A stretch of DNA of 49,652 nt from Asterionella formosa (taxonomy: Eukaryota): the NCBI GenBank assembly GCA_002256025.1, contig NKIB01013935.1:1-49652 (forward strand). Reading direction: 5' to 3'. Shown one piece after another: positions 25,831-48,488 of the stretch (its first letter is position 1; each line of letters starts with the position of its first letter). The translations under genes and the position numbers were made by a program. The notes under the pieces were generated by a model. It was not told where the DNA came from. It did not search any database and worked only from the letters and a program-made list of their open reading frames with translations.

Positions 25831-26449
25831 TTCCTCTATCTTGGCTTGAACAGGCAAGGGCTCTGCTTCCACAAAATCCGCACAACAGTTAGTCACGTAT
25901 TTGGAACAGCAGTTATTGATCATGAGTAGTAGTAGGTAGCTGTCTGAATCATAGTAGTACTACTAGGGTTGTGGCACGCACATTTAGTAGGCCGGTGGAA
26001 AAATTAGTAGTAGACATACCGAAACCCATTGTAGTCCCTGAGCGTTGATATCGTGCTGTGGGCTTGTAGTGGCAGTGGAATGCGTGGTATTCGGATGGCA
26101 ACCCCATGTTATACCTGTCCGAAGTGTCCGACATGATGACCATCTGCGCACCATGGATCTGCCATTCTAAAACATGATTTAAGGATGTCTGGATTTGCTC
26201 ACACACGTAGCTAGTAGGTGGTTCCATTATCCAGGTACAACATTATTGTCCCGCATTTGGCTTTGGGAATGCAGATAGAATGGTGTTTTCGACCGATAGA
26301 CTAGTGTCTATGGTACACAAAAAGACCATGACCAAAACCACTGACAAAATCAAGCATGGCGACATGCATGCTTGCATAGATGCACAAGATAACTCGACAC
26401 AAAAGTAATGTAGGTTGAACTATTTATATTGGTCATCACTCCCCGGCCA

Positions 26450-27240: not shown

Positions 27241-29164
27241 CGTTCCGCATGATCTTGCCTAATGTGCAAGAAATAGTGGGTTGCCCCCCCCCCCTACAAG
27301 CAGCTTGTGCCGCCTTCCTAGCCGGTCGGAGTTTCCTCTAACGCTGCGGCTAAGATGATCACCTTTCGCAAAAGGTGGTTGGGTACTCACCTATGCTAAC
27401 AATAACTAGGAAGAAAGCACAGGCGTTGTTGGCAGGCAGCACAATGAAAGACTTGCCTAGAAATAGGGGAGTAAAAATGGGCTATAAAACATACTATCCT
27501 TTTTTAATATGTACTAAAACAAAATTTATTTCACTTATCGAATAATTAGCTAGCTATGCTGTGTGTGGTGTTAGCAACAATATTTTTTTACCAATCTGGT
27601 CTCAACACATTTAAATAGAAAGTCACTAATTTCTATTCAATTTTTTATTTTCACGCTTACACATGTTTCTTTGATATCAAGTTTTAAAAACCCCGATTTG
27701 TCAGTGCTGACCTACATTCTTGACGACTTCACAAATTGCCAGTACAATCAGTAGATTCTCAGTTGGCTCATAAATAGCAATTTTCGTGGAGATTTCCGCT
27801 TTTTTCGTCATGGTCAAGGCTGAAACAACATGATACAGGATGCTCCAACCAATCACAACGACCGCACTCTAGTGGCCCTTGGTTTGTAGATGTAAAAGAA
27901 TCGCATTATCTCAGCTAAAAAGAAATAAACAACTTTAGCGCTTACTAGTAGTAGGGATACCTTGGGTATGGCTGGTACCCCACCACATGTACTATTTTCC
28001 TTATGTATCAATTATTACTGGTGGTTGAAGGATCGTAAATTGGTGATCCTCAGGGTATACATGTACAACACTTCAGACCACGCCAGTATTTTTATGTGTT
28101 CATTTTACTGTGGTCTGGTACATTTTTTCTATTTGTAAATAAGCACAACTGTGTCCGCGCCCATTTTTAATTGATTGAATATTATTTCAGCATCATCATC
28201 TCTCCTTGTGCCCCCACATAATTGAAAAATCATGCCAATAGGAAAAGTGACAATGACAATGATGGCTTCTGTGTGGTAAGCTTGACACAATGGTTCTTCG
28301 TTCTGAGCTTCTTCCTTTCACACCTATACATCCTTTCTAATTTATAGACTCTCATGACTAAACATTCAATGTTCTTGCCTAACTGCTGGTACTTTTAATC
28401 ATTCGCTATTTTCATCATGGTCAATGCTGCTGCGACAACATGATGATGGAGGATTCTCCAGCCGCTTGCAACTAGGCGACTACCAGTGTGTATTGAGTAT
28501 CATAGTTATAGCTACTACAGTATGATTACATACATAGGTTGTAGGTGACTGTGCGTGATGGCAGCGCGCAGCATTGAAATGATGACGTCACAATAAGCAA
28601 AATTGCTATGCATTGAATCCGTTCGACATATTCAAATCATTTAATATATTTATTTAGAATCTACATAGCTACATACTCCGATCGACGACTATGTGTCATG
28701 TATATGACCCGGCGGCTTGCCAAATATTTGAAAGTGCACTCAAGGAGCGGTATGCGTATGTCCAATGATGATCATCTACTGGTACCCGTCGTGAATATAG
28801 CACCGGACTGTCAGTACACCCAAGAAAATGTTACATGTTTATCCAATGTGGCCGGCATGGGTTTGCAAGACCTCGCAAACCAGGTCAATCAAACAGAGGA
28901 ACGTAGTAATTCACGTTCACCAATCATATTATATATGTGGAAGCGGGCACTTACAATGGAATTTTTTGGATAGGAGATTTTAGGACTAAAAATTCCGGCA
29001 CACGACTACCATTCCGATGATGACGTTTCGGCACTTAATAATTCTGATTCCGATATTTTGGCGACTGTAGAAAAGGCCGATTTTGTCGAGTTTTTGGATG
29101 ACGATAGCTATACGTTGGCTGGGTCTGACGGCGATTTAGATACATAGGTAACTTTCAAATAGCA

Positions 29165-29321
29165 TCAGTATATAACTTCTGGTGAGAAACTGCAGAAAGG
29201 AACTTCGGTTTTTTACTATTCCAACAAATAAACAGATTTCCCCCGAGTTTTCGAGCCTTTTTGGCATAGTTAAAAAGCCGAAGTTCCTTTCTGCAGTTTC
29301 TGACCAGATCCTATATACTGA
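29165..29321. repeat. Long inverted repeat (arms about 60 bp, spacer 36 bp)
   Basis: Arms 29165-29224 and 29261-29321 with a perfect 24-bp core AGAAACTGCAGAAAGGAACTTCGG. Confidence 0.92.
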
Positions 29322-29779
29322 CGATATATCGAGTGGACCTACACCCCCGCCCCTACTTTGTCCGAAGACTGTATTTAAGCATATGGAAAGGGTGTCTATT
29401 GGTGAAAGCTCCGTTGAGCGTTATATATATTTGATTTATATTTGGAGAGTATGGTGTTGATTAGTCTGACTCAATTTTTTTTAACCCTACCTCGAGCTAG
29501 GGGTTCAAATGCAGCAACCTTAAGCAAACCTATTTTAAGCAAAACTGTCCTACATTACTAAGTAAAACAAATGAGAAGCAAATGGCAGAATAAGCAAAAC
29601 AGATTGGTGTCAATATTTAGGCTAAATCAGATTAAAGCTAAATATATATAGTAACAACAAGCCGGTCGGGTTGGTTTACTAAACGGATATCAGAAGAGAC
29701 ACAAGTACCGGTATTAATTTTTTGCCGGTACGAAGTCGTACGTGGAACTATATGTAGCAGAATTACCGCAACTTGCTGT

Positions 29780-29840
29780 TACCAGGTACCAGGTACCTGG
29801 TAGCACCTGTGGAGTACCTGGTACCTGGTACCTGGTACCA
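29780..29840. repeat. GTACCWG heptamer tandem cluster
   Basis: TACCAGGTACCAGGTACCTGGTA...TACCTGGTACCTGGTACCTGGTACC. Similar clusters at 30047, 34203, 34428 and 39285. Confidence 0.9.
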
Positions 29841-30270
29841 GTTATTGGCGTTGTAGATTAGTATACTTACTTGCATGCGTTTTAGTTGACCTCTGATTAC
29901 TTCTCTACATACCGGTACTCAAAGGGTTTTGGGTCGCTTCTCGACTGAACAATTTTCTATTTAGTCCAAAAACGGGTCGTTGTACCAGTACTGGTACGTG
30001 GCTTCTCAAGGAGTTTTTGACTCGTACCTGGCACCCCCCCCCCTTGTACCAGGTACCTGGTACCACCGATACCTGTTGCAAGTTGCGGTAATTGTGCTGA
30101 AACTAAACCTTCAGCTATCTTTATCCCACATATTAAATCGAGTCATTCACATATTAAATCGAGAGCAAAATGACCGCAACGACTTGACTGTTACCTGATA
30201 CTGTACCACTGTTTACAATACTGCATGCATTCTTTTTATGATTGTAGAAATACTTCTAGCATAAGAGACC

Positions 30271-31714
30271 ATGTCGAGTCACCATGCTGAAAAGACGGAA
30301 TACGAACTCCACTCACTTTCACTAGCCTTTCAGACCTATCTTAGACATGATAAAAGCGAGAGATCGCACTGGGAAGATGTATGCAATGCTTATCGTCAAT
30401 ATGCAATGTTTGCTTTATGCCAATGGGCCAATCAACGCCATCGAATAGCTGCCTTGCCTGAGTCCCAAAGGAACTTGCTCCCTAAAGGTCTCAAAGACAC
30501 AATCGAGGGAGAAACAAGATTTACCAACTTCAAGGATTCGGCCATTCGGAATCAATTCTGTCTGGATTGCATACTTCGCCATGCAGGTATGCCTCACTCG
30601 CAGCAAATTGAGGAAGCAACGACAGCGATTGTGGCCGATGATCAGATTTCAAAGGTTTCTTCGGTGCTCAAGAGTCTTGCAAGAGATTGGTCACTTGAAG
30701 GAAAGCTAGAACGAGATCTGGCCTATGTTCCGCTTATTAAACAAGTGAAAGCATACGTGCCTCTTCTCAAATCGTGCGACGACCTACCCAAGATATGTGT
30801 GCCAGGTGCAGGTATGTTCCAAGTGATGATCAAGTGTGATATTTTCTTTGCACCGTGCTTTGTTGCTCACAAAGCGATATTTCGTATCATCAGGTGTTGG
30901 TCGTTTGGCTTTTGAATTATTTTCTATGGGATATACCGTCCAAGGGAATGAGTTTTCATTGTTTATGCTGCTTGCGTCTGATTTTGTCCTTAATAGCGAA
31001 ATTTGTAACCCCTCGCGTCCAATGGTAATATCGCCATGGCTGCTTGAGAGCCGCAATGTGCATTCATGTAGAGATCCTGTGCGGTAAGTTTTGATCTGAA
31101 AACACAATCATGTACCCTTTTTGCGCCATGTCGTTGTCTCATTCTGCAACACAACGGCTTATAGGAAAGTTCATTTTCCAGATGTAGACCCAACTGCAAT
31201 TCTTCGCACAAGCCCCGACGAAACTCAACCAGATTTTTCAATGGCAGCTGGTGAATTCAGTTCCATCTATGGACATCCTCGAGAGGCTTCGCAGTGGGAT
31301 GCTGTTGTATGTTGTTTCTTCCTTGATGCAACACCTAACATAGTGGAATGCATTCAAATTATTCATCAAATGCTAAAAGACAATGGGGTACTCATTAATT
31401 TTGGCCCATTACTCTACCATTGGTCGGGCCCCGCAATGAGGCCAGATGACAGGACCAATGCACATTATCAATCACGTTTCTCTAACCTTGACAAGCGATA
31501 CCTAGCAAGTATAGACCTGTCATGGGAAGACGTGAGAGAAATTTTAATGAATGTCGGCTTTGAACTTGTTGTAGAAGAAGTTGGTATTCCTTCCTTATAT
31601 ACTGCTGACCGAAAATCAATGTTGAATATGGCTTACCGCTGCATACATTTTGTGGCTCGCAAGAGGACAAAAATCCAATGTGATGAAAAAGTCACAAGCC
31701 TCGGTGCTGGCTAG
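30271..31714 (+). CDS. CARNMT1: Carnosine N-methyltransferase-like protein (N2227 family), 3 exons, 426 aa
   Basis: Exons 30271-30811, 30894-31083 and 31165-31714 with GT-AG introns join in frame to give SLARDWSLEG, VPGAGVGRLAFE, QGNEFSLFML, AGEF, FFLDAT and NFGPLLYHW. Confidence 0.92.
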
Positions 31715-31862
31715 TGTAGTTGAGGGCCACAGCATCAAATTAGCGTCGTAGCTTTTTGACCGGATATGATGAGGCAGACAATTTTATCCTTAGTAGAAGC
31801 CATGTTAGCATCCAGCACAACAGAAATTTACTCCTTCAGGTAAACCTCTTACAGGGAATTGC

Positions 31863-33698
31863 CTATTCCTTGATCTTGCCTCCTCCAAGGCGGACTACCT
31901 CCTCCCTTGCCTTGTCTTTTTTGCTCTTTTTATGACTTTTAATACCACCATTCATACGATCGTGGTCCAGTCCACGAGTGGAGTGCTGGGTTCCAGGAAC
32001 AGAGATGCGAGAGGCATCTGCTTTCATTTTCCAATCGTCTTCATTGGGTTCAAAGCCTTTCAAGGTCTCTCTGTCTATGGGCTTGGCTAGGTGACGCGCT
32101 TCAATCAATTCAAGGTGGCCCTCGCTCGACGGAGTGACAAAGGTCATTGCCGTACCAGGACTCCCTGCACGACCTGTCCGACCTACTCGGTGAACAAAAT
32201 CAGCAGTAGATCTAGGAAGGTCGTAGTTCACGACCGCGGGAAGGCCTACAACATCCAAACCTCGACTCGCAACATCAGTAGCCAACAAAACTCTGGTGCG
32301 GCCTTTGATAAAAGCGTTTAGTCGACGCGCTCTAGCATTCTGGTCCAACTTTCCGTGCAGTTCTGCGCTTTCAATACCAGCCTTACGAAGTTTGTTAGCC
32401 ACATGCTCTGCTCCATATCGAGTTGCAACGAAGACCAAAACGCGATCCCACTCTGGGTGATCATTCAACAACTTCCGAAGTGCCAGTGTTCTCTGTGTTT
32501 GGTCAAGTCGCACCGAACGAAGCTGAATAGTTGAAGCTGGTCCAACTTGCTGAAGCTGGTGAGCATCGCTTCCACGCTCTAATCTTCTCTGCAGTGAAGC
32601 AGATACTTCTTCGTTTACGAGCCTATCTGAATTCGAACAGGAGATTCGAAGCATATTTTCGCCTTCCTCACCCCCAAGGCGCTTCAGGATGAAGTTGACG
32701 CGTGGTTCGATTTGCTTGGGGAAAGTAGCCGAAAACAGCCAAGTCTTGATAGATTTCGCATTTTCAAGTAAAATGTCGAGGCATTCATCAACTTCGGACT
32801 TGAATGCCTGACCGAGGAGTTTGTCTGCTTCATCAACGACCAAGGTATCAACTCCTTTGAGCAACTCCTTTATCGAATTTCTACCATCATCATCAATTCT
32901 GTCGAGTTCCAGGTCTTGGATTTGAGATAGTGACAATGTGCTATCGCCCTTGCCTTTGCTATCAAGGGCATCCAATAGTCGACGTTCCAATGCCGAATCA
33001 CTAGCATCACCATTGCTATCATCGTCATAGTGTGTTAGAACGTCCACCAGCCGTCCAGGAGTTGCAATCAAGACATCTATAGTCGTTCCAAGGCGATTTG
33101 CGTTCGACAAAGTAACGATTTGTGCGTCCAGTGGTACACCACCGTAAATCACAACAATATTCCATGCCTTCTTGCCACCAACGTTGCGGCTGAGATTTTC
33201 GAAGACGCGGCCAATTTGAACTGCAAGTTCACGAGTAGGGCAAAGGATCAAAGAGGCAATACCTGTACCTTGTCGTGTCGACAGTTTTTGCAGTAAAGGT
33301 AACGCATATGCAGCTGTTTTTCCTGAACCTGTCGGTGCTTCGCACCAGAAAGACTTGCGATTCGAGGTTAAAATCTCTGGAATAGCGAGCTGCTGAATAG
33401 GAGTTGGTTGTTTCCATCCCGGTTGAGCTCGAACGGCTGTGAGAATATCTTTTGACAGTCCAAGTGTTTCAAACGACGATTTTTTTGGGGTTGCTAATGA
33501 CTGTTGCTCGCTGTCGCCCTCGGTAATTCTCCCGATATCATCTTCGTCGCTAAAGGCAACATGCTTCTTCAACCTGAGCTGGGAGCTAAGATTTCTAAAA
33601 TCAGGACAACGATGCGACCGAACAAGTGACATTCCACAAGATTTCTCCACAAAGAAGAAACCTAGAGCCGATAATGCTCCGATGGTTGAAGCCCTCAT
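31863..33698 (-). CDS. DEAD-box ATP-dependent RNA helicase (RhlE-like), possible N-terminal signal/transit peptide
   Basis: Q motif, GSGKT, PTRELA, TPGRL, DEAD, SAT, RGLD and HRVGRTGRAG all present in a 611-aa intronless ORF. Hydrophobic N-terminus. Confidence 0.95.
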   Translation of the reverse strand: MRASTIGALSALGFFFVEKSCGMSLVRSHRCPDFRNLSSQLRLKKHVAFSDEDDIGRITEGDSEQQSLATPKKSSFETLGLSKDILTAVRAQPGWKQPTPIQQLAIPEILTSNRKSFWCEAPTGSGKTAAYALPLLQKLSTRQGTGIASLILCPTRELAVQIGRVFENLSRNVGGKKAWNIVVIYGGVPLDAQIVTLSNANRLGTTIDVLIATPGRLVDVLTHYDDDSNGDASDSALERRLLDALDSKGKGDSTLSLSQIQDLELDRIDDDGRNSIKELLKGVDTLVVDEADKLLGQAFKSEVDECLDILLENAKSIKTWLFSATFPKQIEPRVNFILKRLGGEEGENMLRISCSNSDRLVNEEVSASLQRRLERGSDAHQLQQVGPASTIQLRSVRLDQTQRTLALRKLLNDHPEWDRVLVFVATRYGAEHVANKLRKAGIESAELHGKLDQNARARRLNAFIKGRTRVLLATDVASRGLDVVGLPAVVNYDLPRSTADFVHRVGRTGRAGSPGTAMTFVTPSSEGHLELIEARHLAKPIDRETLKGFEPNEDDWKMKADASRISVPGTQHSTRGLDHDRMNGGIKSHKKSKKDKAREEVVRLGGGKIKE

Positions 33699-34202
33699 GG
33701 TGTTTCGCAGTCAAAAAGGTGGATGCCGATGGTCCCTGTGGGTTTATGTGTAGCGCCTGGCTGATAGTAGAGTTACTATCGGGTAGAAGGGGCCTTTCCT
33801 TCTGAATGATGATGCTTTAGGATTTACTGATAAACTGGGCTCGGGCGTGTGAAGTGACTACCGGTAGTAATGTGCCAGATTCATCCTCGGCTCATGCTTC
33901 GTTGATGGCTGATTTACCAGTATACATATACGGTAGCTCATGGAGTTACGAACTTCTTGTGTGAAATTTTTGATTGGTCTTGAGAGGCCCGAAATAAGAA
34001 TAGGGCAAATTTGAGCTGCATATTTTTGTTATATCGAACTTCTCTCTGGTATGTTCCAGTACGGGGTTACAGGAAATGAAAGAATATGGAAAATAATGGC
34101 AACTACTAACATAATTTAATTTTGAATCATTACTGTGTAATATTTCGAAATACAACACTTCGTATGGATCATTTCTTTCGACTCCCCCGGAGTGGACTAG
34201 TT

Positions 34203-34233
34203 TACCAGGTACCAGGTACCAGGTACCAGGTAC
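34203..34233. repeat. (TACCAGG)4 tandem repeat
   Basis: Read directly from the sequence. Confidence 0.95.
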
Positions 34234-35229
34234 GGGTGCAAGGGTACTGGTACCGTACCAGCAATGCAAGCAAGTTGCGGCCATTCATTGTTCTGTTCCT
34301 GAAACTGACAAAGTGTCGCCGGACAGGTGCTAATTTCATTTTTTATATAGAAAACGTCTTCAATAAATAGCTAGATTCCTTCTGATATGCATAATGATCC
34401 TACTGGCGGGTGAACGTGAATACAGACTACCTGGTACCTGGTACTCACCAGATTGGCCGGTGCCGGCATCGATATGCTGGTACATTTGTATTCTCCAAAG
34501 TCCAGAGTAGCCGGTAGTAGTACTGGTAATTAGTAAAAGCACCTCCACTGTTCAAGTATTACCTTTTTGATAGATACATATCATTCGAACAAAGAAGACT
34601 ATAGATAGAGACATTCGTTTCTCTTTCCATTTCTATATTCTTATTGTGCGTTTACTAATCTAGTTTAGGTTGTTCTGTTTGAACAAACAAACGAACTATT
34701 CTCCAAATGCTGTTTGCATTTCTAGAAACATACAATCATATTTAGACCCACCATGTGTATCTCACACTTACTGATCATAGGTTTTTAACCATGATCATTC
34801 ATTTTCAAACTATCGGTCTTCCGAAGCAGCTTATATTGTCTGGCTCATTTAAGCCGGAGTAACAAGGTTGAACGTGTGGTTGATGAGCACTTGGTACATA
34901 AAAGTTGACTCAATCGAATCATTTGACTCATTTGACTGTGAGTCATAACTATGTAGATGAGCTCACTTTAACACTCCACCACATCGACCAAACACCAAAG
35001 CCAATTGCAGTTGAAAATATCAAAACACGTCACTTGGTTGAGAAGCTTTTTATCAAAAGTCGAAGTTTTCATATTTTTTCCCACCGCATTGACCAAATCC
35101 TAAAATAGTCAAATCTCACGCTCAAACTTTTAGCAAATAGAAATACTAGAGCTATATTATCTTGTATGTGTATCGTTGATATAGTGATTGGTACTACTAT
35201 ATATATACACAAAATGAAACAATGAGCAA

Positions 35230-36437
35230 CGATAGCAACTCATCAGATGATGATTGCCTCTACCATTTCCACAAAATGCATTCTTGTTGTCAACAAGAAT
35301 GAAGTGAGAACGACACAAAGAAAAATCAAAGTAGGGGGGGGGGGAGGTTCCAAGGTTGGCAAGGCTACTAACATGAATCGTTTTTGTGCAAAGTACAAGA
35401 AGCTGTTGAAAAATGACTATTTCGAAGACAACCCGATCCACTCTCCTGCATTTTTAGGAGGCGCTTCCAGATGCGCCGCATCAAAAGTTTACTTCAGCGC
35501 TTCTTCGAATGTTGGCTTATGGAACTTCGGCGGATCAGCTGGACGATCTCACAAGAATGACTGAATCTACCGTACTCCGCAACCTAAAAGTGTTTTGTTA
35601 CTCAATAATCAGCAGGAGGTAGTAGTATGGCACAGAATATTTGCGAGCTCCTCCTACTACAAAGGATGACATGGAAATGATTTTACGTCTCCATGAGGAA
35701 GCAAAGGGTTGGCCAGGACTTCTTGGTTCATTGGACGTGATGCAGTGGGAATGGAAGAATTGTCCCAAGGCACACAGAGGAGCATCTCAAGGAAAATATG
35801 GAGTGGATACTGTTCAGCTTTGGAAGCTGCTGTTGATTGTAGACTTTGGTTCTGGCATGCATGGTTGTTAGGAATGCCAGGTGCTAACAACGATCTCAAT
35901 ATTTTGGATAGTTATCTGTTTCTCCAGGATGTGACAGCTGGATTGACTACTGCTGTCAACTTCACAATCAACAACAAAACACAATCAAAGTTACTATTTG
36001 GTTGATGGCATCTATCCAGATTGGCACATTTTCGTAAAAACAACTTTGGAGCCATAAGGTGCAAAGTGTGCATATTTTGCAATGCTTCAAGAGGCCCAAC
36101 AACGCAAGGACGTAGAGCGAGCATTTGGTGTGCTACAGGCAAGGTGGAGGATCCTGTAACTTCTTTGCAAGCTTTGGTCAATAGGTGATATGAATCATTT
36201 CATCATTGCATGTATCATAGTACTACACAACATGATTATAGAAGATGAGTGGATACACAACAAACAAACGAATATTTTTTTGATAAAATTCAGGATGGCT
36301 TTTTGGTTGACGATGTGAATCGCGACAACGTGCATATTTTTATAGATTTCAAAGCAATTAGAATGAACTACATGAATGAAGGTGAGCACTACCAATTGGA
36401 TTTGATCGAGCACTTGTGGACTCAAAAGGATAAATAA
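35230..36437 (+). pseudogene. PIF/Harbinger DDE transposase, frameshifted
   Basis: GWPGLLGSLDVMQWEWKNCP, GMPGANNDLNILD, LVDGIYPDW, RKDVERAFGVLQARWRIL and LHNMIIEDE. Confidence 0.92.
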
Positions 36438-36544
36438 AATATAGCATTTTGATTTCTAAATTAAATTAATTGACACCTATGTTCTTATAAATCGGAAACA
36501 TTGAAATTATGCTAGAAGAATAATTGATAATCAAATTATTTTAA

Positions 36545-37330
36545 AACTCTACTTGAATCGATTCATCATCAGTAGATGGTGATGGAGAAGTTGAAGCATC
36601 TACTTCAATGGAACTTCTAGACACGTCCTATATATCCTTTTTGGCCTTTTTGGTGCCAGTGTTCCCAATCGCAGCATTTATCTCCTCCATTGCTTCTTGT
36701 GCCTTCATGGCAAACCACTTTTTAGCTTCTTCTGACTCACTATTCATTGGAAAAATCTTGTATAGGAACTCATCACATTGAATTTTCACCTTTCTTTCAT
36801 TCATCATAACATGCTTCTGCTCAATGACAAGCTGAGCATTTGCAACATGCTTTCATTATTGGCGGCTTTGTCCCCATGGGACGCAGTTCATTCTTTAAAT
36901 CAGCAACCTTCAATTTTCGTTGGTCCCGAACATAATCGCAACCACCCTTCCACTTCGGGGCCTCCTTTAAAATACGCCAACACCCATCAAAAATAGACTC
37001 TTTACCCAAACTTTTCCCTTTACTTCCAATTTAAATATCTCCATACTAGCTTCTTCAATGTATTTATCCTCCGTCCATCCTGATTTTGGAACACTCGTCA
37101 CCTACGCAAAGAGGCCCCAGAACTTTGTGACATCTTGATTCATCGTTCCCCATCGAGCCATGCATGCTGTTGATGTCCGCTCCTTGCCATCCGGGATGAT
37201 GCCTACAAAGATCTCAAACAACCGGCCCCTAGCCTTGGTTATTGAGTCTTCACTGGCTGCAACCCAGGACCGAGCGAGCGCCTCGTCCTCTTCCATCTCC
37301 CACGGCGTAACACCTGAGCCCATCCTGATG
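36545..37330 (-). pseudogene. Harbinger-associated Myb/SANT-like (NAM-associated) protein, disrupted
   Basis: WEMEEDEALARSWVAASED...RWGTMNQDVTKF, SGWTEDKY and CWRILKEAPKW. Confidence 0.85.
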
Positions 37331-38059
37331 ATGCTGAGCGATGATGTTGAATAAATTATGCGTATTTCTAGTATGTGTTGACACCGAACTGACGCGCTGA
37401 TGGTTGTATTTGTCTACATGAAGAGCGATAGTACTGAAAATATATTTTATCTATGTGCACACTTATTAAACCATAAACGCTATGTTGCCGGCGCGAGCTA
37501 TGAACTAGACCAATAGAAATGCTTCTTTTGTTTGGCTATTATGGTCGGAGTCTAATTGACCAAATACCTGATATTTGGTAGATAAGAGGGTCAGGTACAT
37601 TACCATCCTTGCACATATTATGTATTTCTAAATGCACAATGGTTTTTTTGGAATTAGTTTTCCTTCAAGCGATGCGAATTTTCTAGTCGCATGAAGACGA
37701 ATAAACAGTGTATTGTTGAGTGTCTATCCTATGTATGTCTATATGAAATTGCATGATGACCTTTCAATATTCCATAGAAATATAAACCACGAAAATTTTT
37801 ATGTATTACCAGTACTTTAAATCCAGAACGAAGGATAGGTGGTTTTTTCACTTTGGCCAGGCAGATTACTATGTGAGAGCTCGACTAACACCAATTGACT
37901 ACTTTAATGTCAACCTACTAGGTGAATGAGTTCCATAAAATGATTAAATAATAAGCTTATGATTCAATAAATACGACTTTTTGTAGCTAGTTAGATACTT
38001 CACTTTGAATTCAAAAAGAGTCAAGTTAGAACTAAAACATGGCAATGTATTCAAGAGTT

Positions 38060-39240
38060 CCTGTTATTCCCTTGATTAAGGATTGCAATGTCTTCAACAT
38101 CCAAACTAAGCAATTTCGGGTTGCTTTGACTGGTGGAAGGTTTGGATACTATTGTTTATTTACAGGATAACAAGACATTGGACACAGCCGGCCTTGCTGT
38201 AGTAATACAGTATATATACAATTGCATAGATGGACAAGATGTTTTACATGCATATCAGGGTTCAATTCCGGTTTCTAGTTTTACATCTAAATATATATAT
38301 TAACATCAATCAATTTGAATCCGATGCAATCAATTTGAATCCGATGTCTATTTTAGCCTCACGATTGGTGGATGCTATTCCCATGTATTAAAAAACTATG
38401 AGCGTTGTTTGATAGTGGTGGACCCCTATCATTAATTCACAAACAGGGGAATGGCTTAGTGGTTAGCACACCCACTGTGGTGGCGGGTTCGATTCCTGCA
38501 TTCTCCACCTGTCTTTTTCATGTAGTCCCTAGGGTTCTGGGGGGTGCGGCTGACGAAAAGACAGGTCCCCGTTGTACTGTGCGGACGAATAAAACAGGTA
38601 CTGATTGTGTCCATCTATTTGGTGGGCCCGAGTGCAATTATTGGATAGCTTTAATGTACTATAAAATTTAATTGACATTTATCATTAATTCACAAACAGG
38701 TCATGCCTCATGGTATTTCACTGTCTAATGAAAATTCTCAATTAGTACATACTATATCAAGTACTCATTCATCTCACGCCAGTGTTGTTTTACATGATCT
38801 GATTCTTCCCGAATTTAATTGAACTGCTGGTATAATACTGCAAAAATGTCAAGTCTTTAATGGTTAATGCATTTTTGATGCCATTTTAGGCTGTCATTTT
38901 CTTCATCAAGTTGGGTTAACTTTTAATTTTATAAATAATACCATTTCTTCAGTATGGATATGATTGTGCCAATGCATGCATCCTCTCACATTTTTTAATG
39001 ATGGAGAACATTTACGTGATGTATTATTGTATTTTGATGCACCTACTACAGAATCATCACATGTCCTGGAAACCAAAGCTGCAGACTATAATTATGTGGA
39101 TGTATCAATGCAGTGCTGGCCAAACAAATTCATATAACAGTGGATCAATGGTTACAATTACAAACCATCTGCCTTGTCTAAATTTCAAATGCTCTTTGAT
39201 GGCAAATCAAAGTTTATCCTCATAAACAGGTCCATTTTGA
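38060..39240 (+). mobile_element. Degenerate Ty3/Gypsy remnant (protease region), copy 2, interrupted by the SINE
   Basis: Collinear with the reverse complement of about 12810-13700: LFDSGGPLSLIHKQ/VMPHGISLSNENSQL versus LFDSGGFLSLMNEWVMPQGIPLSNETSQL. Confidence 0.88.
38446..38679 (+). mobile_element. tRNA-Ala-derived SINE-like retroposon, 234 bp
   Basis: tRNA-like head 38446-38507 with A box TGGCTTAGTGG and B box GGTTCGATTCC. TSD TATCATTAATTCACAAACA(GG) at 38427 and 38680. The insert is absent from the paralogous Gypsy copy. Confidence 0.85.
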
Positions 39241-39324
39241 ATTAATGCCAGATGCTGTTCCCTCTCGTCAACGTGCGTATGAGGTACCTGGTACCAGGTA
39301 CCCCCTCGTATGAGCGTCGAGAAC

Positions 39325-39326
<2 letters not shown>

Positions 39327-39355
<29 letters not shown>
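39327..39355. repeat. (TA)n microsatellite
   Basis: Read directly; about 14 units. Confidence 0.95.
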
Positions 39356-39358
<3 letters not shown>

Positions 39359-39599
39359 TTGTATATAGAACAGGAGTCTTAATCATAGGCAAAGCGGCTA
39401 CAGCCGCATGTCCCGGTACATACCGGTACTACGGGGTAGCAGTAGCTGGTGCACTCCTTCCAGGGAAATGCCCCAAAGCATATCATGTAGCCTACCGGTA
39501 TAATCTCTATTATATACATGTAAAAATCAAGCAGCCAAAAGCAATGCATCCATTGAACATACCGGTAAACTATACAGCATCAGCAAACGGGATGAGACG

Positions 39600-41903
39600 A
39601 TGGCCGAGCCTCATGGGAACGATGGAGAGAGCTTTTTGCCTCAGTCGCCAGCCAGGATAACCGAGCGCAACGTATCTTTGCCAACAGCTAGCGGTAATAT
39701 GCCCATAGCAAGAGTGCGCCAGTGGACCACTAGTAGTTTGCCAACGACTAGCTTCGGTGCCGACCTGACCCAAGCCGCTGACGATGAATCGTTGTTTCAT
39801 GCAAGCTGGACTGGAAAGCAGGACTTTTCGGGAGGACCAGTCTTGTCCATAACTTCAAGAACCACTCCCAATTCTGGGGCTGCTGTAGTCGATGGCGACA
39901 ACGGACGATTTCACGCTCCAGATGATGCAAATGCGGTCACCTCAAGCATTCATCATGAAGCTCGCATTGAAAACTGGCAAGTCGTCTTGAGCCTTTGCAA
40001 TTCTCAACCACATCACGCACAGTATGCAGACCAAAATGGCTGGACTGCGTTACATCATGCCTGCAATCGGCGATGTCCGAGAAGCGATGTAGTCAAAGCC
40101 TTAATTATCGCTTATCCTGGTGCATTGCTAGATTTGGAAGAAAAGGGGATGACTCCTTTACACTACGCCTGTAGATTCAAAGCTCCAGTGAAAGCGGTCA
40201 GACATCTATTGCATTTATTTCCTGAAAAGGGCCATGCTGCTGTTTCCAGGCGAGATCGACAAGGAAGGACACCGCTGTTTTACGCAGTCAGATACGAGGC
40301 ACCACCAGGAGTGGTTGAACTGCTATTGGAAGTAGACCCAGGCGCCGTTTTGAATGAAGATCGAAATGCGGGCAGCCCTTTGGCTGTTATTTGGGATGAT
40401 TGGGCTGAAAAATTTGAAGGGAAAAGGACATTGCAACCCTACCTTCATCCTGACGAAGCAGGGTTGCAAGACTCCACACCAGCAGGGTTGCGTGCCAAGT
40501 TGGAAGCGGACTTGAAACTAAAGAAACGTTGGTCTAATGTTAATATGCTACTTCGTGCTGCGTTTAGATTTCCGATGGAAACGCCTTCCACCAAAAGTAT
40601 CGAGAATCGGCAATGGAGAGTCCTCCATGCCACAGCAGCTATAAAATGTCATCACACACTCTTCCTTTTGGCGAGGGCATTGTACCCTGAACAGGCGATG
40701 GAATTTGATGAGGGAGATTTGAGCGTCAATCATACAATACCACGATCTGCTTTGCATCTCGCGGCATCTTCGCCCGCAAATGGCGACTCTGGAAAGTCTG
40801 TCTTGGCGTCCCTAACGGAACTTAACCCCGAAGCTGCGTTCATGGTAGACGAAGAAGATGGAACTTTACCTTTTCACCTTATTGTTGATAACAAATGGAA
40901 GTCGCATTGGTCAATGGACGGTTTGAGGTCATTGCTTTCAAGCAACCCTCTAGCAGCTAGGGCAGTTGACAAACAGGGAAGAATGCCACTTCACAGAGCA
41001 GCGGCCGCTATCGCGAATCATGCTGGGACGGACTGGTCAGGTGCGACTTCGAGCCTGGATATCCAATCAACTATTTACAATTTGCTTCAAGTATATCGCG
41101 AAGCAGCGAGAGTGCCAGACATTACAGGGTGCTTGCCTCTACACTTGATAGCGTCCCAGGGGAGAATATGGGACGAGGAGGTTGATGCTGTGTATAATGC
41201 ACATGAAGCTGCCACTCGAACAAGGGCAGGACCACAGGCTGATTTTTGTTTACCATTGCATTTGGCGGCCAACAACAAAAGGGCAGAGTTGTCGCTCGTT
41301 GCAAAGTTGGTGGAACTTAACCCCAGAGCTGCTTCTCAAACAGAAGCGAATGGAAAGCTCCCCTTGCATCTTGCATGCGAAATTGGTAATACGTGGGATA
41401 AGGGTATTTCTAATATTTATGATGCTTTCCCTAACGCTGTGCGCGAACGTGAAGCAAACGGAAGAAGTTGGACAGCACTACAAATGGCTTCAGCTTCGCG
41501 CAACGAAACTGGTCCATTAATTGAAAAGCTTGTAGAACTCAATCAGGGAGCTGCGAATCAACAAGATACCAAGAAACGTTTTGCTCTTCATCTCGCTTGT
41601 GTTGCTGGCAAGGGATGGGAAACTGGCCTTCGCACTCTTTTTGAAGCCAATCCCGATGCACTTTTCATTGAGGATGAATGCGGCCTTCTTCCCTTCCACA
41701 TCGCAGCGTTTCGATACTGCAAACCTTCAGAGATAGAAATCGAGAGGGCGAATAACTTGAAAGGACCAGTCTTCAAATCGAGAGTGATTGTTCGCACCAA
41801 CATCGTCGAAATACCAAGTCCGCGATCATGTGAAAACGAAGCTGTCCAGATCGAAATAATGTTCGAGCTCCTCAGGGCTGCCCCCAACGTCCTTTTGATT
41901 TAA
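39600..41903 (+). CDS. Ankyrin-repeat protein, 767 aa
   Basis: Repeated GWTALHHAC, GMTPLHYAC, GRTPLFYAV, GRMPLHRAA, GCLPLHL and GKLPLHLAC motifs in a long intact ORF. Confidence 0.93.
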   Translation: MAEPHGNDGESFLPQSPARITERNVSLPTASGNMPIARVRQWTTSSLPTTSFGADLTQAADDESLFHASWTGKQDFSGGPVLSITSRTTPNSGAAVVDGDNGRFHAPDDANAVTSSIHHEARIENWQVVLSLCNSQPHHAQYADQNGWTALHHACNRRCPRSDVVKALIIAYPGALLDLEEKGMTPLHYACRFKAPVKAVRHLLHLFPEKGHAAVSRRDRQGRTPLFYAVRYEAPPGVVELLLEVDPGAVLNEDRNAGSPLAVIWDDWAEKFEGKRTLQPYLHPDEAGLQDSTPAGLRAKLEADLKLKKRWSNVNMLLRAAFRFPMETPSTKSIENRQWRVLHATAAIKCHHTLFLLARALYPEQAMEFDEGDLSVNHTIPRSALHLAASSPANGDSGKSVLASLTELNPEAAFMVDEEDGTLPFHLIVDNKWKSHWSMDGLRSLLSSNPLAARAVDKQGRMPLHRAAAAIANHAGTDWSGATSSLDIQSTIYNLLQVYREAARVPDITGCLPLHLIASQGRIWDEEVDAVYNAHEAATRTRAGPQADFCLPLHLAANNKRAELSLVAKLVELNPRAASQTEANGKLPLHLACEIGNTWDKGISNIYDAFPNAVREREANGRSWTALQMASASRNETGPLIEKLVELNQGAANQQDTKKRFALHLACVAGKGWETGLRTLFEANPDALFIEDECGLLPFHIAAFRYCKPSEIEIERANNLKGPVFKSRVIVRTNIVEIPSPRSCENEAVQIEIMFELLRAAPNVLLI

Positions 41904-42994
41904 TGAGCGGATTGAATGATGCCAAGTATGAATAGATCCAACAGGTAACATAATCAATGTACCGGTATACCGTTGATCCGGATCCGCTGATACATATTCA
42001 TACACCCGTATAATTATGTTGTACCCATACATAAGAACTGGTATATGATAGAGAGATGTCATTAGTACAACCACGAAGAAGGTCCTTACAATGTAGACGG
42101 TTTGTACTATGAGGAAAGTAAAGTAATAGCTAGTTGGTACAGGTAGCATTTCTCAACGAAAACAAGGTGAAGCAAGCACTCGGAGTGGTTGACTGACTAC
42201 CAGTACCAGGTACCTAGTACAGTGTAGGACGGGATTTGAATTTGACCGCCTGACGCACTTTCGAATTTATTCTGCACGGGCACTACTTTAACATATACTA
42301 GTACAACATAGCATATATATTACATAGACAATATGAATAGCACACATAAATAGTCTACTGAATATGTATGTATAGAAATTTTTGTCAGGACACATCTATA
42401 TGTTTAAGTCGAGCACTGCTTCCTTGTCTTTATGCCAAAACCAAGCATGTGAGGAGTTTTAGGTCGTGGAGGATGCGCCAACGACAGGAAACATTATCGC
42501 ACGCCGGCACCACTGAATGTGCTTGGCAATGCGTCCATGTCTAATTAACTGGTGTAGCTCCGGACCAGAAGTCAACGACCGGTTAACTGATGATTGCGTG
42601 TTTGCTCCCTGATGTTGTGGATAGTTGCGCTTAGTATTACAGCATCTTGATCTCGGATTGTTCCCACTGTTGTCCATTGCTTCTTCAGAAAAGTGGTAGC
42701 AATATCCCAACGCTCTCGACTTTCAATACGCGCTGTGCTTTTTTCAATAAATTCACGGTCGTATCTAATTGCTTTCGTTTCGAGAAGCTCAATCGTCCTT
42801 TCACCGATACAACATTCACTTTAGCAAAACCTGGTCCTCGTCAGGTCCAGCAATATAGACTTGACACGAACGAATTTTCAGACGGGATAACATTTCGTGG
42901 TCTCGACTGGCCTTGCTAGGTTCTCTCAGTGTTACCGGCAGACGCTTTCTTTGGGGATCTCGCTTATTCTTGTGGTGTTTCAGTAAGCACAGAT

Positions 42995-44092
42995 ATGGCA
43001 ACTGTCAATCTTCTTGATTTGGCAGCTTCAGCGCTAATTTCTACCGTTGGAGCATCGGCGCCCATTCGATCATATGCAACTCTAGATAGTTGCGACGCCG
43101 AGAAAAAGAATGCAAAATTGAAGACCGACGGTACAGTCGTGACGGATGCTGATTTTGCCGCACAAGGCATTATCGTGCGAGCTCTTCGCCAGACTCCTGG
43201 GAATTTTCGTATCATTGGAGAAGAAAGTCAAGAAGAAATGGAACGCCATATGAAGGAGGAATCTGCTGGTGAAGCCGAAGATCGAATGCACCTCTTTCGT
43301 TTAGCACAGTTGGAAATGTACAAACGTTTTCAACAGATTGAAATGGCGACTCCACCATTGTCAGCCAACGTCGACGGTATTCCAGATAATGAAGGCCTTC
43401 CTTCGATGGAGGATACATCTGACAAACCGGAATATATTGTTGACGCCTCGAGGGTCAGTGTTTATGTTGACCCTTTAGATGGCACCAAATCATATGCGAA
43501 AGGAGACTATGACTCTGTTACAATTTTGGTTGCAATAATTCTGGACAATGTCCCTTACTTTGGTGTCATTACAAAACCGTTTGGCTATAAGACTTATTCG
43601 ACAATTCTGGAAACACACTGCGTTGCAGTCTATGGTGGAGTTCTTTTGAACGGGGTGTACCTTGCCGGGGGTAAAAAATGTGAAGTCAATGCACTTGGTG
43701 ACGACCTTCCTCGCGCTGTCATCTCCAGCTCAAGGGCAGATGGGGTCGTTCGCGATTTCGTTGATCATTTGGCGGAGCATGAAGTCATTGATGCTCATCC
43801 ACTTCTTGTAAGTGGTGCCGGGGAAAAGTCCCTTCGTCTAGTGCTTGGAAACGAAAAAGAGACTCTTTGGTTCTTTCCTAGAGCGGGAACCTCTCGTTGG
43901 GACATCGCTGCTTCAGATGCACTATTGCGAGCGTTGGGAGGGGCCGTCACAGATAAATACGGGCACGAGCTCGACTACTCTAAATCGCGGGAGGATGCGG
44001 AGAATGTGGATGGTATTATTGCAAGCAATAGCTCCACATTGCATGCTGAATGCATTCGCTTGTTTAAGGAAGGGGACTGGAAAAATCGATAG
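42995..44092 (+). CDS. Inositol monophosphatase-family enzyme, likely 3'(2'),5'-bisphosphate nucleotidase
   Basis: KTDGTVVTDAD, IGEE, VYVDPLDGT and WDIAASDALLRALGGAVTD. First in-frame ATG is at 42995; an upstream exon cannot be excluded. Confidence 0.9.
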   Translation: MATVNLLDLAASALISTVGASAPIRSYATLDSCDAEKKNAKLKTDGTVVTDADFAAQGIIVRALRQTPGNFRIIGEESQEEMERHMKEESAGEAEDRMHLFRLAQLEMYKRFQQIEMATPPLSANVDGIPDNEGLPSMEDTSDKPEYIVDASRVSVYVDPLDGTKSYAKGDYDSVTILVAIILDNVPYFGVITKPFGYKTYSTILETHCVAVYGGVLLNGVYLAGGKKCEVNALGDDLPRAVISSSRADGVVRDFVDHLAEHEVIDAHPLLVSGAGEKSLRLVLGNEKETLWFFPRAGTSRWDIAASDALLRALGGAVTDKYGHELDYSKSREDAENVDGIIASNSSTLHAECIRLFKEGDWKNR

Positions 44093-44442
44093 GTCATGCA
44101 TTTTCTTGAAATTTACTCCGTACTATTATAGCTACTTACGGTATAATAGCTAGTAAGTACCGGTATGTTCGTTCAAAGACAGGGAATAAACCCTGCAGTG
44201 CGTTAGGGTTGGCGGGGCAGCGAACTAGAAGAATTCTTGGTTGATGGTTGGCAGGTTGATGGTTGCATCGATCATCAAACAAAGAGAGCAAGCCAAACCT
44301 CAAATGACAAAGAAAACCAATACTACGCACTTGCATGATACTACCTGGGGCCTCAAAAGAACAGAAGAATATACAAAAGACTATTACCAGATACCAGGAT
44401 TCTGATAGCTACAGTAAAGTGATTTGTGAAAGCTAAACGAAT

Positions 44443-45657
44443 ATGAAAATCGTCGATTTTAATTTTTCTTTTCGTCGCAAGCTCGGCTATCTTGCTTTAT
44501 TTTGCCCAGCAGTAGCAGCCGTCTCGTATTCAGAGATCAAGGTAAGGTCAAAAGAAGCTTCCAAGTTGCTGTAGTCAAGCTCTCTTTTGCCGTTGCCCTC
44601 AATGTCCGTATCCTTAATCTGAAGCATGTCTCTGGGCATCGAATCGAAGATGACTACACCCAACCTCTCCCAATTGACTACCTCCGTCCTGTAGACCTAC
44701 CATATAGCTTTTCCTGGGGAAATGTATCGGGGACTTCCTATTTGACGAAGTCTCTGAATCAACATTTGCCCCAGTGGTGTGGCTCTTGTTTCGCACATGG
44801 TGCTCTTTCCAGTTTGGCTGATCGAATCAAAATTGCTCGGAATGCAAAGGAGGATGATATCAACCTTGCTATACAGTTTATTCTCAACTGTGGAGGCGAC
44901 ATTGCAGGAAGCTGTCATGGTGGATCTCATACCGGTGTATATGAGTTTATCAAGATGACAGGCTTTGTGCCGTTTGACACATGCATGCCCTACCTGGCGT
45001 GCTCATCTGATTCTACTGTTGGGTTTTGTGCACATCTAGATACGAGTTGTTCGGCCATAAATATTTGCCGTACATGTAACACTTTTGTTGAACAATCTGG
45101 ATTTTGCGCTGAAATTGACGTATTTCCCAATGCAACAATTTCAGAATATGGAACAATCAAGATGGATCCAGAGGCTATTATGGCTGAGATCTACGCTAGA
45201 GGGCCGGTTGCAGCTGAAGTAGCAGGGGAACCTCTGCATAATTATACAGGTGGGATCTTTGCAGACGAAATGGCATCGAGAGAGACTACTCATGTGGTAT
45301 CAATCATTGGATGGGGAAATGATAACGGCGGGAAGCATTGGATTGTTCGGAATTCTTGGGTGAGTAACTATCGCCGTCTTCTCGTCTTTCCGCCTTCCCT
45401 TGTCTAACTTTCTGAGTAATCAGGGTGAATATTGGGGAGAACGGGGCTATTGCAAAATCAGGATGGGGAGCAACGTAATTGGAATCGAAAAAGTGGTGGC
45501 TTGGGCAACACCCGGATATTTTACAGATAGAAACTATCCTTGCTTCGAAGATGGTTCAAATTGTGGTCCGGTATGGCTTCAATACAAAGATCCATCAAAG
45601 ACCAGGCTTCCCTATGGTAAATTGCGGGCAATAAGCCTATCTAAGAACTTATTGTAA
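44443..45657 (+). CDS. CTSZ: Cathepsin Z/X-like papain-family (C1A) cysteine peptidase, 3 exons, about 355 aa
   Basis: Exons 44443-44541, 44625-45359 and 45424-45657 (first acceptor AAG, less certain). NQHLPQWCGSC with the cathepsin Z HxP insertion, HVVSIIGWG, and RNSW/GEYWGERG across intron 2. Confidence 0.88.
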
Positions 45658-45692
45658 GGGGTGCATTAAGGGATAATCACATTGTTATATTT

Positions 45693-48488
45693 TCATGATT
45701 GAGGGGAGACTGCTAGCTTGGTTGGACTCGCTGCTTGCTCGCCGAGCAAATGTTGTAAAAGCATGGTTCTTTGCGAAATAGGAAGCTGGTTCCGCACTGA
45801 CATTCGTCTAACAAAAGCGCACGATCGTTCAAGTCCACAACCAAATTCAATCATACTATGGGCTAGTGCCCCCAGTTGAGCAAATACAACAGCATGCACT
45901 TGTGACGCTGCCTCGCATCTCTCCGTGTGAGTGAGGTCGTGCCATTTCAGTTTTCGGGTTTCCGTCCACTCACTTCTATTCGCACTGTCCCCACCTCGTT
46001 CGAAATTTGACATCACACCACTATGAGTTAAAGATTCAGTTACACATTGAAAAAGAGCTTGATCCCAGAATTCTTCATCGGCCCAAATAGGATGTTCAAC
46101 GAGTTTGCTTTTTACGTAGATGCGCTTGTTTCGGGCGGAACGATTTGGTGATTCATTTTCTGTCTTGCTCTCCGACTCGCTATTCTCTTCGTCGACAATA
46201 AAAAAGGATTGTGACAACATCATGCACATCTTGGCATTTGCAACACTTCCGGCTTCGTGATCACAACCATTCAAAATGGAGTAGATAACCCTTGAAACAC
46301 CATCAAACTGCATTTGCCGCTTTAACCGAGCAGCACTTCGTTTCGAATTGATAGCATAGCAAATAGTGGAGCGACGTGATCTGGAACATGGATGTTTTCT
46401 ATCCTCCGCTACTTTGCATAGAAATGAAACGGACTTTTCAAATTCGGCGAAGGCATCATCAGTTCGAATTGTCAAAGTTTCCTCATCAAAGAATAGGTCC
46501 TCGACTGCATCCTCGAGCTCCTCTGGCGTGATATCTCCTTCGTCTTCATCAGTATCATTCCAGTCCAAAGCTGTCATCCTGTTTGGCGATGTGTTTCCCA
46601 TGCTACCGTCCACGTGGCTGCTTAGAACCGCCAAAGCTGATGCTATTCCGCCATCATCATCATCGCCCATCCACGTAGAACCACCACGCTCCTTCTTGTC
46701 GTTGGAGATGTAGACATCAAGATCAGTGCGCACATTCATATTCTCAACAATGTACTCCAGTTCCACAAGGTTCTGAAGTCGTTCTTCAATAGATTCACGT
46801 TCAGTTTTCACCAATGCTTTAAGGCATGCAGCTTGAGCGTTACATGCACTCAAGAGGCAGGTTTCTGCGGCAACTCGAGCAGAACGTCGCGTCGTGTCAA
46901 GGTTACTAAGAACATTGAGAAGGGATCCCGCAGTATCCTCAATAGCTTCATCGGCAGCAAGGGCGGAAGAACGCAACCCCGGAAGGTTGCATTCTTGTTC
47001 AATTTGAGCTCGTGATGCAAAAGAAACGGAAAAGCCTTGCATTTCTGGCGTTGAAGAAGAACTAGGAACTACAGCTGGTTTCATGGGTGATTGCATTGTC
47101 TGATCACGGGGTCCTTTGATTGGAGCTTGGGGTAGATCCAAGGGAGTGAAACTTCCATCTTCCAACGAGTCCGTCACAGCGGCAATCATATCCCAAACTT
47201 CGGCTTGGGTGGCCCCCAAATGAGCTTTAGTTGTGTCGTTAGCATGAGCCTCTTGATCTATCCGAAACTGCTCCATTCTTTGACGTTCTCGTTCTCTTGA
47301 GCGTTGCAACATGCTTTCTTCCATAATTTTAACAACAAGCTCTTCGGCTTCATATACCAGTTGCCATCGGCGCTTGCTCTCCGCTTTGCAATAGGCGAGC
47401 CGACCTTCAATTTCATTCGCACGACGCTGCATTTCTTTCAATGATCGTTCTCGATGATAGCTCCGTTCGGCGGCTTTGTCGGCGGCTCTTCTAATCTCGG
47501 CAAGAGATCCATGACTAGCTGATCTCCAACGGTTGGCATCATTTTCCGACATCATAATATGGTATTGTTCAAAGGCCACGGTGGCTGCGTGAACAGTGCC
47601 GCCCCTATACGATAAGGGGCCGACTCGATCAGGGGTCATCATGAGCGACGGCTCGCGACCAATACTGACTTTGCTGGAATCCCAGCTGGATCCAATTGGC
47701 TCCAGCTCTGAGAGTGAAGAGAGCGCATCTGAAGACGACCATTTTCGACTGGAACCGTTCGTCGTTGAGTTCACTAGCGCTACTGGCACTGGGAGGGGTG
47801 GTGCGATACCGTGATTATCGCTTATATTCCGAAGGTGATCACATGCTTGGGAAGCTCTTGCTGCATGCTCCTTCTTGGACGTAATGAGTGCTTCCATAAA
47901 ACTAGTCATCTCTCGAAGCGACATTTCAGATTGGCGGATTGACAACGAGGTTGCCGCCGCTGACCAGCCTGTGGCGCTGAAGCCATTCAAGGCGTGATCT
48001 CCTTTGCTTTGTAGATCGTACCCCATAATAACGGCACTATTGTAATCATCCGACTCTTGACGATTTGCCAAAAAGTTGGCATACGGCGACTGCGATGGCC
48101 CTCTGTCCACTTGCGCCGTACTCGTTCCGTTTTGCGGCGTCTCCGGTGATTGAGATTCGCGCTCGTCCTCTTGCACAGCAGTTCGTCGCTCCTGCGGTAT
48201 CAACAACAAATCTCCATCCGGGCTCACCAATACGCTACAGTCCTTCATGCCTGTCTCCGAGTCTCTCTTGACAGACGACTGCGCGTAGGAGGAGGAAGCT
48301 GCCAAGGCATCGCAGGCTTCCACGCAAGAGTCAAACGACGATAAATCAGTTAATTTCGCATTGTATCCCAAGGGCGATGTTTCCATAAAGAAGGTGGGAG
48401 ACGGGCCTCGTCGAGAGGAAGTTGATGAGTTACTTCGCGTCTCGTCGCTGCCAACGCGGCGTATGCGCGATTTGATCCGTCCCAGCAT
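45693..48488 (-). CDS. Coiled-coil protein with C-terminal SBF1/SBF2-like domain, about 931 aa
   Basis: Long intact ORF (open from 48755; likely ATG 48488). HPIWADEEFWDQAL...VFAQLGALAHSMIEFG resembles the SBF2 domain. Charged helical centre. Confidence 0.8.
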   Translation of the reverse strand: MLGRIKSRIRRVGSDETRSNSSTSSRRGPSPTFFMETSPLGYNAKLTDLSSFDSCVEACDALAASSSYAQSSVKRDSETGMKDCSVLVSPDGDLLLIPQERRTAVQEDERESQSPETPQNGTSTAQVDRGPSQSPYANFLANRQESDDYNSAVIMGYDLQSKGDHALNGFSATGWSAAATSLSIRQSEMSLREMTSFMEALITSKKEHAARASQACDHLRNISDNHGIAPPLPVPVALVNSTTNGSSRKWSSSDALSSLSELEPIGSSWDSSKVSIGREPSLMMTPDRVGPLSYRGGTVHAATVAFEQYHIMMSENDANRWRSASHGSLAEIRRAADKAAERSYHRERSLKEMQRRANEIEGRLAYCKAESKRRWQLVYEAEELVVKIMEESMLQRSRERERQRMEQFRIDQEAHANDTTKAHLGATQAEVWDMIAAVTDSLEDGSFTPLDLPQAPIKGPRDQTMQSPMKPAVVPSSSSTPEMQGFSVSFASRAQIEQECNLPGLRSSALAADEAIEDTAGSLLNVLSNLDTTRRSARVAAETCLLSACNAQAACLKALVKTERESIEERLQNLVELEYIVENMNVRTDLDVYISNDKKERGGSTWMGDDDDGGIASALAVLSSHVDGSMGNTSPNRMTALDWNDTDEDEGDITPEELEDAVEDLFFDEETLTIRTDDAFAEFEKSVSFLCKVAEDRKHPCSRSRRSTICYAINSKRSAARLKRQMQFDGVSRVIYSILNGCDHEAGSVANAKMCMMLSQSFFIVDEENSESESKTENESPNRSARNKRIYVKSKLVEHPIWADEEFWDQALFQCVTESLTHSGVMSNFERGGDSANRSEWTETRKLKWHDLTHTERCEAASQVHAVVFAQLGALAHSMIEFGCGLERSCAFVRRMSVRNQLPISQRTMLLQHLLGEQAASPTKLAVSPQS

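Follow-up and report, generated by a model that had tools for sequence, protein, structure and literature searches.

The borrowing of a LINE 3′ tail by a SINE is a textbook principle. SINEs with LINE-derived 3′ tails are presented as a general principle in two papers (PMC7245038, PMC5786205). In diatoms, SINEs have been recorded among the annotated repeats of Cyclotella cryptica and of Phaeodactylum tricornutum, and the same source describes their roles as poorly understood (PMC7466962). On the side of the LINEs, Ambal is one of 32 non-LTR clades in Repbase (PMC5753468), and 'LINE/Ambal' is reported to be abundant among the repeats of one diatom genome (PMC12803021). A literature search yielded no description of a diatom SINE with a LINE-derived tail; the mechanism is an ordinary one, in a lineage whose SINEs are barely described.

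The DNA analysed here, referred to as the window, comprises 49,652 nucleotides of Asterionella formosa (contig NKIB01013935.1, positions 1 to 49,652). It contains a tRNA-derived SINE and two LINE remnants, here called LINE1 and LINE2 (Table 1). A preliminary description, made from the sequence alone, had paired the tail of the SINE with the 3′ end of LINE1. Host genes are listed across 30265–48770. Outside of these genes, direct repeats are found at 1–317 and 195–515 (94%), an inverted repeat at 175–1061 and 20028–20956 (79–90%), and a copia-type gag-like ORF at 1329–1868 on the minus strand, which matches Retrotran_gag_2 with an E-value of 2.6e-4, below the cut-off.

Table 1. Positions of the SINE, the LINE remnants, the related repeat tail and the genes in the window (TSD, target-site duplication).
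Feature	Position	Strand	Remarks
tRNA-derived SINE copy	38448–38679	+	232 nt, 47% G+C; 3′ end ...GACATT
SINE TSD, left copy TATCATTAATTCACAAACAGG	38427–38447	+	identical to 38680–38700
SINE TSD, right copy	38680–38700	+	identical to 38427–38447
SINE A box TGGCTTAGTGG	38452–38462	+	fits the box consensus
SINE B box GGTTCGATTCC	38486–38496	+	fits the box consensus
SINE tail blocks aligning with the LINE1 3′ end	38623–38678	+	block 1 38623–38637, block 2 38646–38678
Paralogous empty site, single TSD-like copy in the second host LTR-retroelement remnant	13376–13396	-	
LINE1, 5′-truncated non-LTR remnant	6001–11218	-	split by ~4.3 kb (roughly 6643–10937)
LINE1 TSD, 3′ copy	5983–6000	-	17/18 versus 5′ copy
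LINE1 TSD, 5′ copy	11219–11236	-	1 mismatch
LINE1 3′ tail blocks aligning with the SINE tail	6012–6083	-	6083–6067 and 6043–6012
LINE2, 5′-truncated non-LTR remnant (RNase H-like region, zinc finger, C-terminal ORF, 3′ UTR)	23978–25840 (3′ end undefined)	+	
LINE2 3′ UTR motif TTAACGCATACTCTAAAATTT	25805–25825	+	matches SINE 38651–38669
Tail of a third, high-depth repeat	27419–27513	+	homologous to the LINE1 tail only (shuffles, blastn)
Carnosine N-methyltransferase-like gene, two exons	30265–30915, 31100–31714		
DEAD-box helicase	31863–33710	-	
Ankyrin-repeat protein	39504–41903		
Inositol monophosphatase-like protein	42920–44092		
Papain-family protease	44463–45407		

The SINE is a real, multi-copy, short and non-coding element with a tRNA-like head, a TSD and an empty site. 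It resides in a decayed LTR-retroelement, of which the window holds two protease-RT copies (11327–14000 on the minus strand and 38333–39262 on the plus strand, the latter carrying the SINE). The protease-RT region of these remnants was recognized by eye from the motifs FDAILG..., PKKDG... and YIDDV, and Pfam gave no match. The flanks of the SINE (38333–38436 and 38699–39262) match 13489–13387 and 13377–12800 of the other remnant at 74–75%, and both boundaries of the SINE are fixed because this paralogous copy retains the empty site. The first 62 nt align end to end with positions 1–71 of the Rfam tRNA model, with a shortened anticodon arm; the score of 26.2 bits (E 0.0018) falls short of the gathering threshold of 29. 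A search with Rfam at the gathering score reported nothing at the head, and ARAGORN likewise called no tRNA. Within the head, TGGCTTAGTGG and GGTTCGATTCC fit the consensus of the A and B boxes. Head and body fold with a z-score of −2.17. A run of five T would terminate Pol III in many organisms; such a run is situated in the SINE body (38514–38518), where it pairs with AAAAGA in a long hairpin (38510–38566), and its presence argues for caution regarding the predicted Pol III transcription of the SINE. A second tRNA-like head is located at 19167–19121 on the minus strand (77% to SINE positions 1–47), followed 230 nt downstream by a 25-nt box (18936–18912, minus strand) resembling SINE 38605–38627. 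This second element, which has only the head and the 25-nt box in common with the SINE, probably derives from an older or a related SINE.

The abundance of the SINE was assessed with the contigs of 4 out of 24 listed sequencing runs, labelled as algae, freshwater and lake metagenomes, which were aligned to 23900–38900 at 80% likeness. In one run (X1), at least 63 contigs fit the SINE through 38679 and then continue into unlike, AT-rich flanks (agreement 0.42), while 77 further contigs carry a variant tRNA-like head that is joined at 38479. Since the contigs diverge right after 38679, the tail up to this position is part of a family with many insertions. The summed contig depth of X1 in the bin 38429–38900 amounts to 424,868 versus about 730–930 over the single-copy genes (30413–33919); this sum is not equivalent to a copy number, and the bin also contains part of the LTR remnant. 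Similar ratios between the SINE bin and the single-copy genes were obtained with the other three runs. None of the joints skipped the SINE among the 15 listed out of 539. The segments on either side of the single-copy genes, 28409–30412 and 33920–38428, are unclassified high-copy repeats. Their summed depths are extreme, with a maximum of 1.75 million in X1, joints are numerous, and inverted repeats occur (29165–29327, 29776–41). A pattern scan for the SINE in viral contigs gave 0 matches, as did one SINE pattern in contigs of prokaryote genomes. With a second pattern, the prokaryote contigs contained 4 isolated 20-mer matches, which were dismissed as chance, with no SINE around them.

For LINE1, a profile built from relatives of LINE2 and searched across the window provided two matches on the minus strand, one to the zinc-finger region (11165–10938, E 3.4e-9) and one to the C-terminal W..RN motif (6642–6553, E 0.0033). 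The two pieces are collinear yet 4.3 kb apart and, in combination with a TSD identical at 17 of 18 positions, this identifies LINE1 as a 5′-truncated LINE that was later split by foreign DNA. The 3′ end at 6001 is credible. The LINE proposed at 6001–6090 in the preliminary description thus proved to be a LINE end, but one that belongs to an interrupted and 5′-truncated element instead of a contiguous one. The insert of about 4.3 kb (6643–10937) harbors 155-nt near-tandem repeats (7776–8081) and has no Pfam match. A direct repeat of 70 nt flanks LINE1 (5919–5986 and 11256–11326); interpretation as LTRs was rejected, as the order of the repeats fits a tandem duplication in the target instead.

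LINE2 is traceable by tblastn from about 23978 and covers only the last quarter of the protein of its relatives, including an open frame of 303 codons that ends at 25720. Its 3′ end is undefined because a search for a TSD found none. The RNase H-like motifs DGS...HVKSHQD...LNxxAD were seen by eye and in the alignment. Searching 1.84 billion representative sequences with the read-through of 24107–25720 (stops as X) retrieved 326 relatives at E ≤ 1e-3. Among 13 of these relatives analysed with Pfam, Exo_endo_phos was detected at the N-terminus of three long ones (P0035, P0087 and P0108), zf-RVT in four (all below the cut-off), RVT_1 in one (19.4 bits) and RNase_H in one (20.4 bits), the latter two also below the cut-off; five were without any match. 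Identity between the window LINEs and the closest long relatives is about 25%. From these likenesses, LINE1 and LINE2 appear to be remnants of one APE-type non-LTR group with RT, RNase H and a C-terminal zinc finger, LINE1 as a decayed member of this group and LINE2 as a more distant one. Direct comparison of the two by tblastx yielded nothing. When the frames of LINE1, LINE2, the LTR remnants and 26300–27561 were searched with stops masked, Pfam detected neither an RT nor an RNase H nor any other informative domain. Both LINE copies are truncated, contain stops and lack an RT, and no intact LINE with an RT is present within the window. An alignment of five LINE relatives gave nothing against viral contigs and two loci in metagenome contigs (L001 and L002; 50-residue matches at 36%). 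These were discarded as a source of a LINE end, since they represent one identical sequence without a usable LINE end or SINE. A cluster look-up of 10 LINE relatives returned neither informative names nor taxa. Upstream of LINE2, about 200 nt from its truncated 5′ end, a 30-nt stretch (23749–23777, plus strand) resembles the final 30 nt of LINE1 (E 0.021 by blastn) and may be another retroposon tail.

The tail of the SINE and the 3′ end of LINE1 align in two blocks, and the sequences quoted for them in the preliminary description are present at the positions given there; the one correction concerns the SINE body, which spans 38448–38679 with ...GACATT as its end. In block 2, the by-eye estimate of about 24 matches in 33 positions was confirmed by counting and by local alignment: SINE 38646–38678 and LINE1 6043–6012 (minus strand) are identical at 24/33 positions, with one gap of 1 nt. 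The upstream block was likewise recovered, TGGGCC-CGAGTGCAA (38623–38637) aligning with TGGGCCATGGAGCGCAA (6083–6067) with 13 matches in 15 aligned positions and a gap of 2 nt. Moreover, the TSDs reported next to both segments are there, with agreements of 21/21 in the SINE and 17/18 in LINE1, and the related LINE2 motif announced for position 25805 was located in the 3′ UTR, where TTAATG--TACTATAAAATTT of the same SINE segment aligns with TTAACGCATACTCTAAAATTT. The match is short and AT-rich (24/33; 35 nt at about 74%), and the 3′ ends are not co-terminal: beyond the CTATAAAA box, 22 nt follow in LINE1 versus 13 nt in the SINE, and these are poorly alike. With one insertion of each compared, TSD lengths are 21 nt for the SINE and 18 nt for LINE1, and both targets read CC/WATMAT.

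A tail of the same kind terminates a third repeat. The repeat at 26836–27513 (plus strand) reaches summed depths of 159,000–247,000 in X1 versus about 800 over single-copy genes, has no Pfam match, and shares only its last 65–95 nt with the LINE1 3′ tail; Rfam gave nothing on 26700–27600. Its tail aligns with that of LINE1 at a score of 23, which none of 2000 shuffles attained (mean 10.0, s.d. 1.67), and with a blastn E-value of 0.003. Contigs of two further runs (X3 and X7) begin at 27514. The two tails are clearly homologous, and that of LINE1 is a real module that is reused. Like the SINE, the repeat may represent a non-autonomous family that makes use of this LINE tail. An nhmmer profile constructed from these two tails, and therefore without the SINE, places SINE 38634–38678 as the best non-self match, with an E-value of 1 versus 8.5 for the next one. 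Within block 2, the SINE agrees with LINE1 in 18 of the 22 columns where LINE1 and the third repeat are identical and in 2 of the 5 where they differ.

Two readings of the tail likeness compete with common descent, and the first is chance: two AT-rich ends may resemble each other while the partner of the SINE, or a different (e.g. relaxed) mode of recognition, lies outside the window. In dinucleotide shuffles under three scoring schemes (2000 each for the local alignment, 3000 each for a block-chaining score), SINE and LINE1 tails gave p-values of 0.0045–0.007 and 0.004–0.008, respectively, with scoring schemes and tail lengths picked after the data had been seen. When both strands of the window are searched, nothing aligns locally with the SINE tail better than the 3′ end of LINE1, which matches in the same orientation; the LINE1 tail ranked top under two of three scoring schemes. 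Among 3278 genomic 90-nt segments on both strands, only the two covering the LINE1 tail reach a score of 16. However, the next best segments score 15, only one point lower, a plain blastn across the window returns the match at an E-value of 0.4–0.6, and the profile E-value of 1 is no lower, so that neither search is significant at the scale of the window. By the chaining score, 12 of 2456 segments equal or exceed LINE1; these comprise the two of LINE1 itself and five other loci, two of which (27441–27600 and 23721–23840) are LINE1-tail-like themselves. Furthermore, the tails of LINE1 and LINE2 are not significantly alike (p 0.71–0.92), and the comparison is one of single, old LINE copies.

Against chance stands that the top match falls on a 3′ end set independently by the TSD and the profile matches, and that LINE2, too, aligns with this segment of the SINE. 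For the full LINE2 3′ UTR the p-value is 0.007–0.042, with 26 of 2456 genomic segments scoring as high, and for a LINE2 tail ended at 25810 it is 0.18–0.5. Of ten 120-nt segments taken from behind ORFs, those of the LINEs have the two highest scores, 25.25 and 23.25, far above the seven host genes (12.75–18); the copia-like gag ORF scores 23.0. In addition, the SINE tail is the top non-self match of a profile to which the SINE itself did not contribute. Taken together, chance is a serious but rather unlikely explanation. The other reading holds that the box in the tail is kept for a different role in retroposons, such as a signal for 3′-end processing or termination, and was perhaps acquired from a third element like the repeat ending at 27513, so that the LINEs would not be the mobilisers of the SINE. 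Indeed, a TATAAA-like string forms part of the core of the box, an unrelated repeat of high depth carries the same tail module, and the LINE2 region bears no sign of many close copies, its summed depth in X1 (1136–1424, not a copy number) being near the level of single-copy genes. Nevertheless, a Pol III SINE is not known to need such a signal, and where a non-autonomous retroposon has its tail in common with an autonomous one, recognition by the RT is the usual explanation. This second role is therefore regarded as improbable. The preferred reading is that the resemblance reflects homology and that the SINE tail is LINE-derived, to which we assign a probability of about 0.6. Since the tail resemblance is probably homology, the SINE is likely a client of the RNase H-bearing LINE group. 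Of the earlier proposal that this SINE parasitises RNase H-containing LINEs, the reality of the SINE, the type of the LINE group and the 3′-end likeness were borne out; these LINE families, or an intact relative, would be the candidate mobilisers.

Under common descent of the tails, and following the mechanism established for SINE/LINE pairs, the SINE would be transcribed from its internal A and B boxes, and the RT of an intact LINE of the group would recognize the shared tail. The recognition core could be the box AATG-NN-CTATAAAA, positioned 13–24 nt before the 3′ end, possibly together with a 6-bp stem. The LINE endonuclease would then nick an AT-rich target, and target-primed reverse transcription would give rise to TSDs of 18–21 nt. 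Among these elements, tail homology, recognition by the RT and the identity of the LINE partner are what we infer from the comparison. The box, with or without the stem, might thus serve APE/RT/RNase H LINEs as a template handle that was captured independently by at least two non-autonomous families, one being the SINE with its tRNA-like head and the other the high-depth repeat that ends at 27513. This would constitute a first defined SINE/LINE partnership in this algal lineage. This wider proposal is put forward tentatively and has somewhat less than even odds.

The candidate stem is formed in the SINE by AGTGCA and TGTACT (38631–38636 with 38655–38660) and in LINE1 by AGCGCA and TGCGCT (6073–6068 with 6034–6029), 6 bp in each case. 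All three differences between the two stems keep the pairing, and one pair is altered on both sides. Random triple substitutions retain the stem in 2.3–2.7% of cases, but 50 of 220 transition-only triples do so. In the third repeat the stem is broken, with 5/6 pairs. The SINE tail folds at the level of its shuffles (z −0.45), whereas the LINE1 tail folds better (z −2.37, 3/200). RNAalifold found no pairs in the tails as aligned by MAFFT, because that alignment had left the upstream blocks unmatched. Due to the retention by transition-only triples, the incomplete stem of the third repeat, the shuffle-like fold of the SINE tail and the RNAalifold result, the stem is weak evidence for a shared tail.

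A SINE family that comes with precise ends, a TSD, an empty site and a candidate LINE partner would serve repeat annotators as a curated model, and would offer a handle for the dating of insertions and for strain markers. Moreover, the shared 3′ box provides a testable candidate recognition signal of an RNase H-bearing LINE group with unstudied biology.

Comparison with described elements reveals that tRNA-derived SINEs (Repbase SINE2/tRNA) in 'stringent' SINE/LINE pairs are the closest counterparts of the present SINE. Both combine a tRNA-like head that contains A and B boxes with a unique body and a tail other than poly(A) that resembles a LINE 3′ end, and both have a TSD and many dispersed copies. 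In contrast to the stringent pairs, the tail likeness found here is short (about 35–60 nt at about 70–75%) and extends to decayed LINE copies only, the ends of SINE and LINE are not co-terminal, the candidate partners are decayed, and the host is a freshwater alga from a group whose SINEs are barely characterised. The LINE group itself resembles the RNase H-carrying non-LTR elements of the APE type, as the long relatives of LINE2 carry Exo_endo_phos and a weak RVT_1, zf-RVT or RNase_H. Membership in a non-LTR clade is defined by RT phylogeny; with respect to Ambal, the copies in the window are devoid of an RT, and 'Ambal-like' is the label chosen in the preliminary description. Finally, the SINEs of diatoms appear in a passage of PMC7466962 as counts and not as a defined family with a LINE partner.
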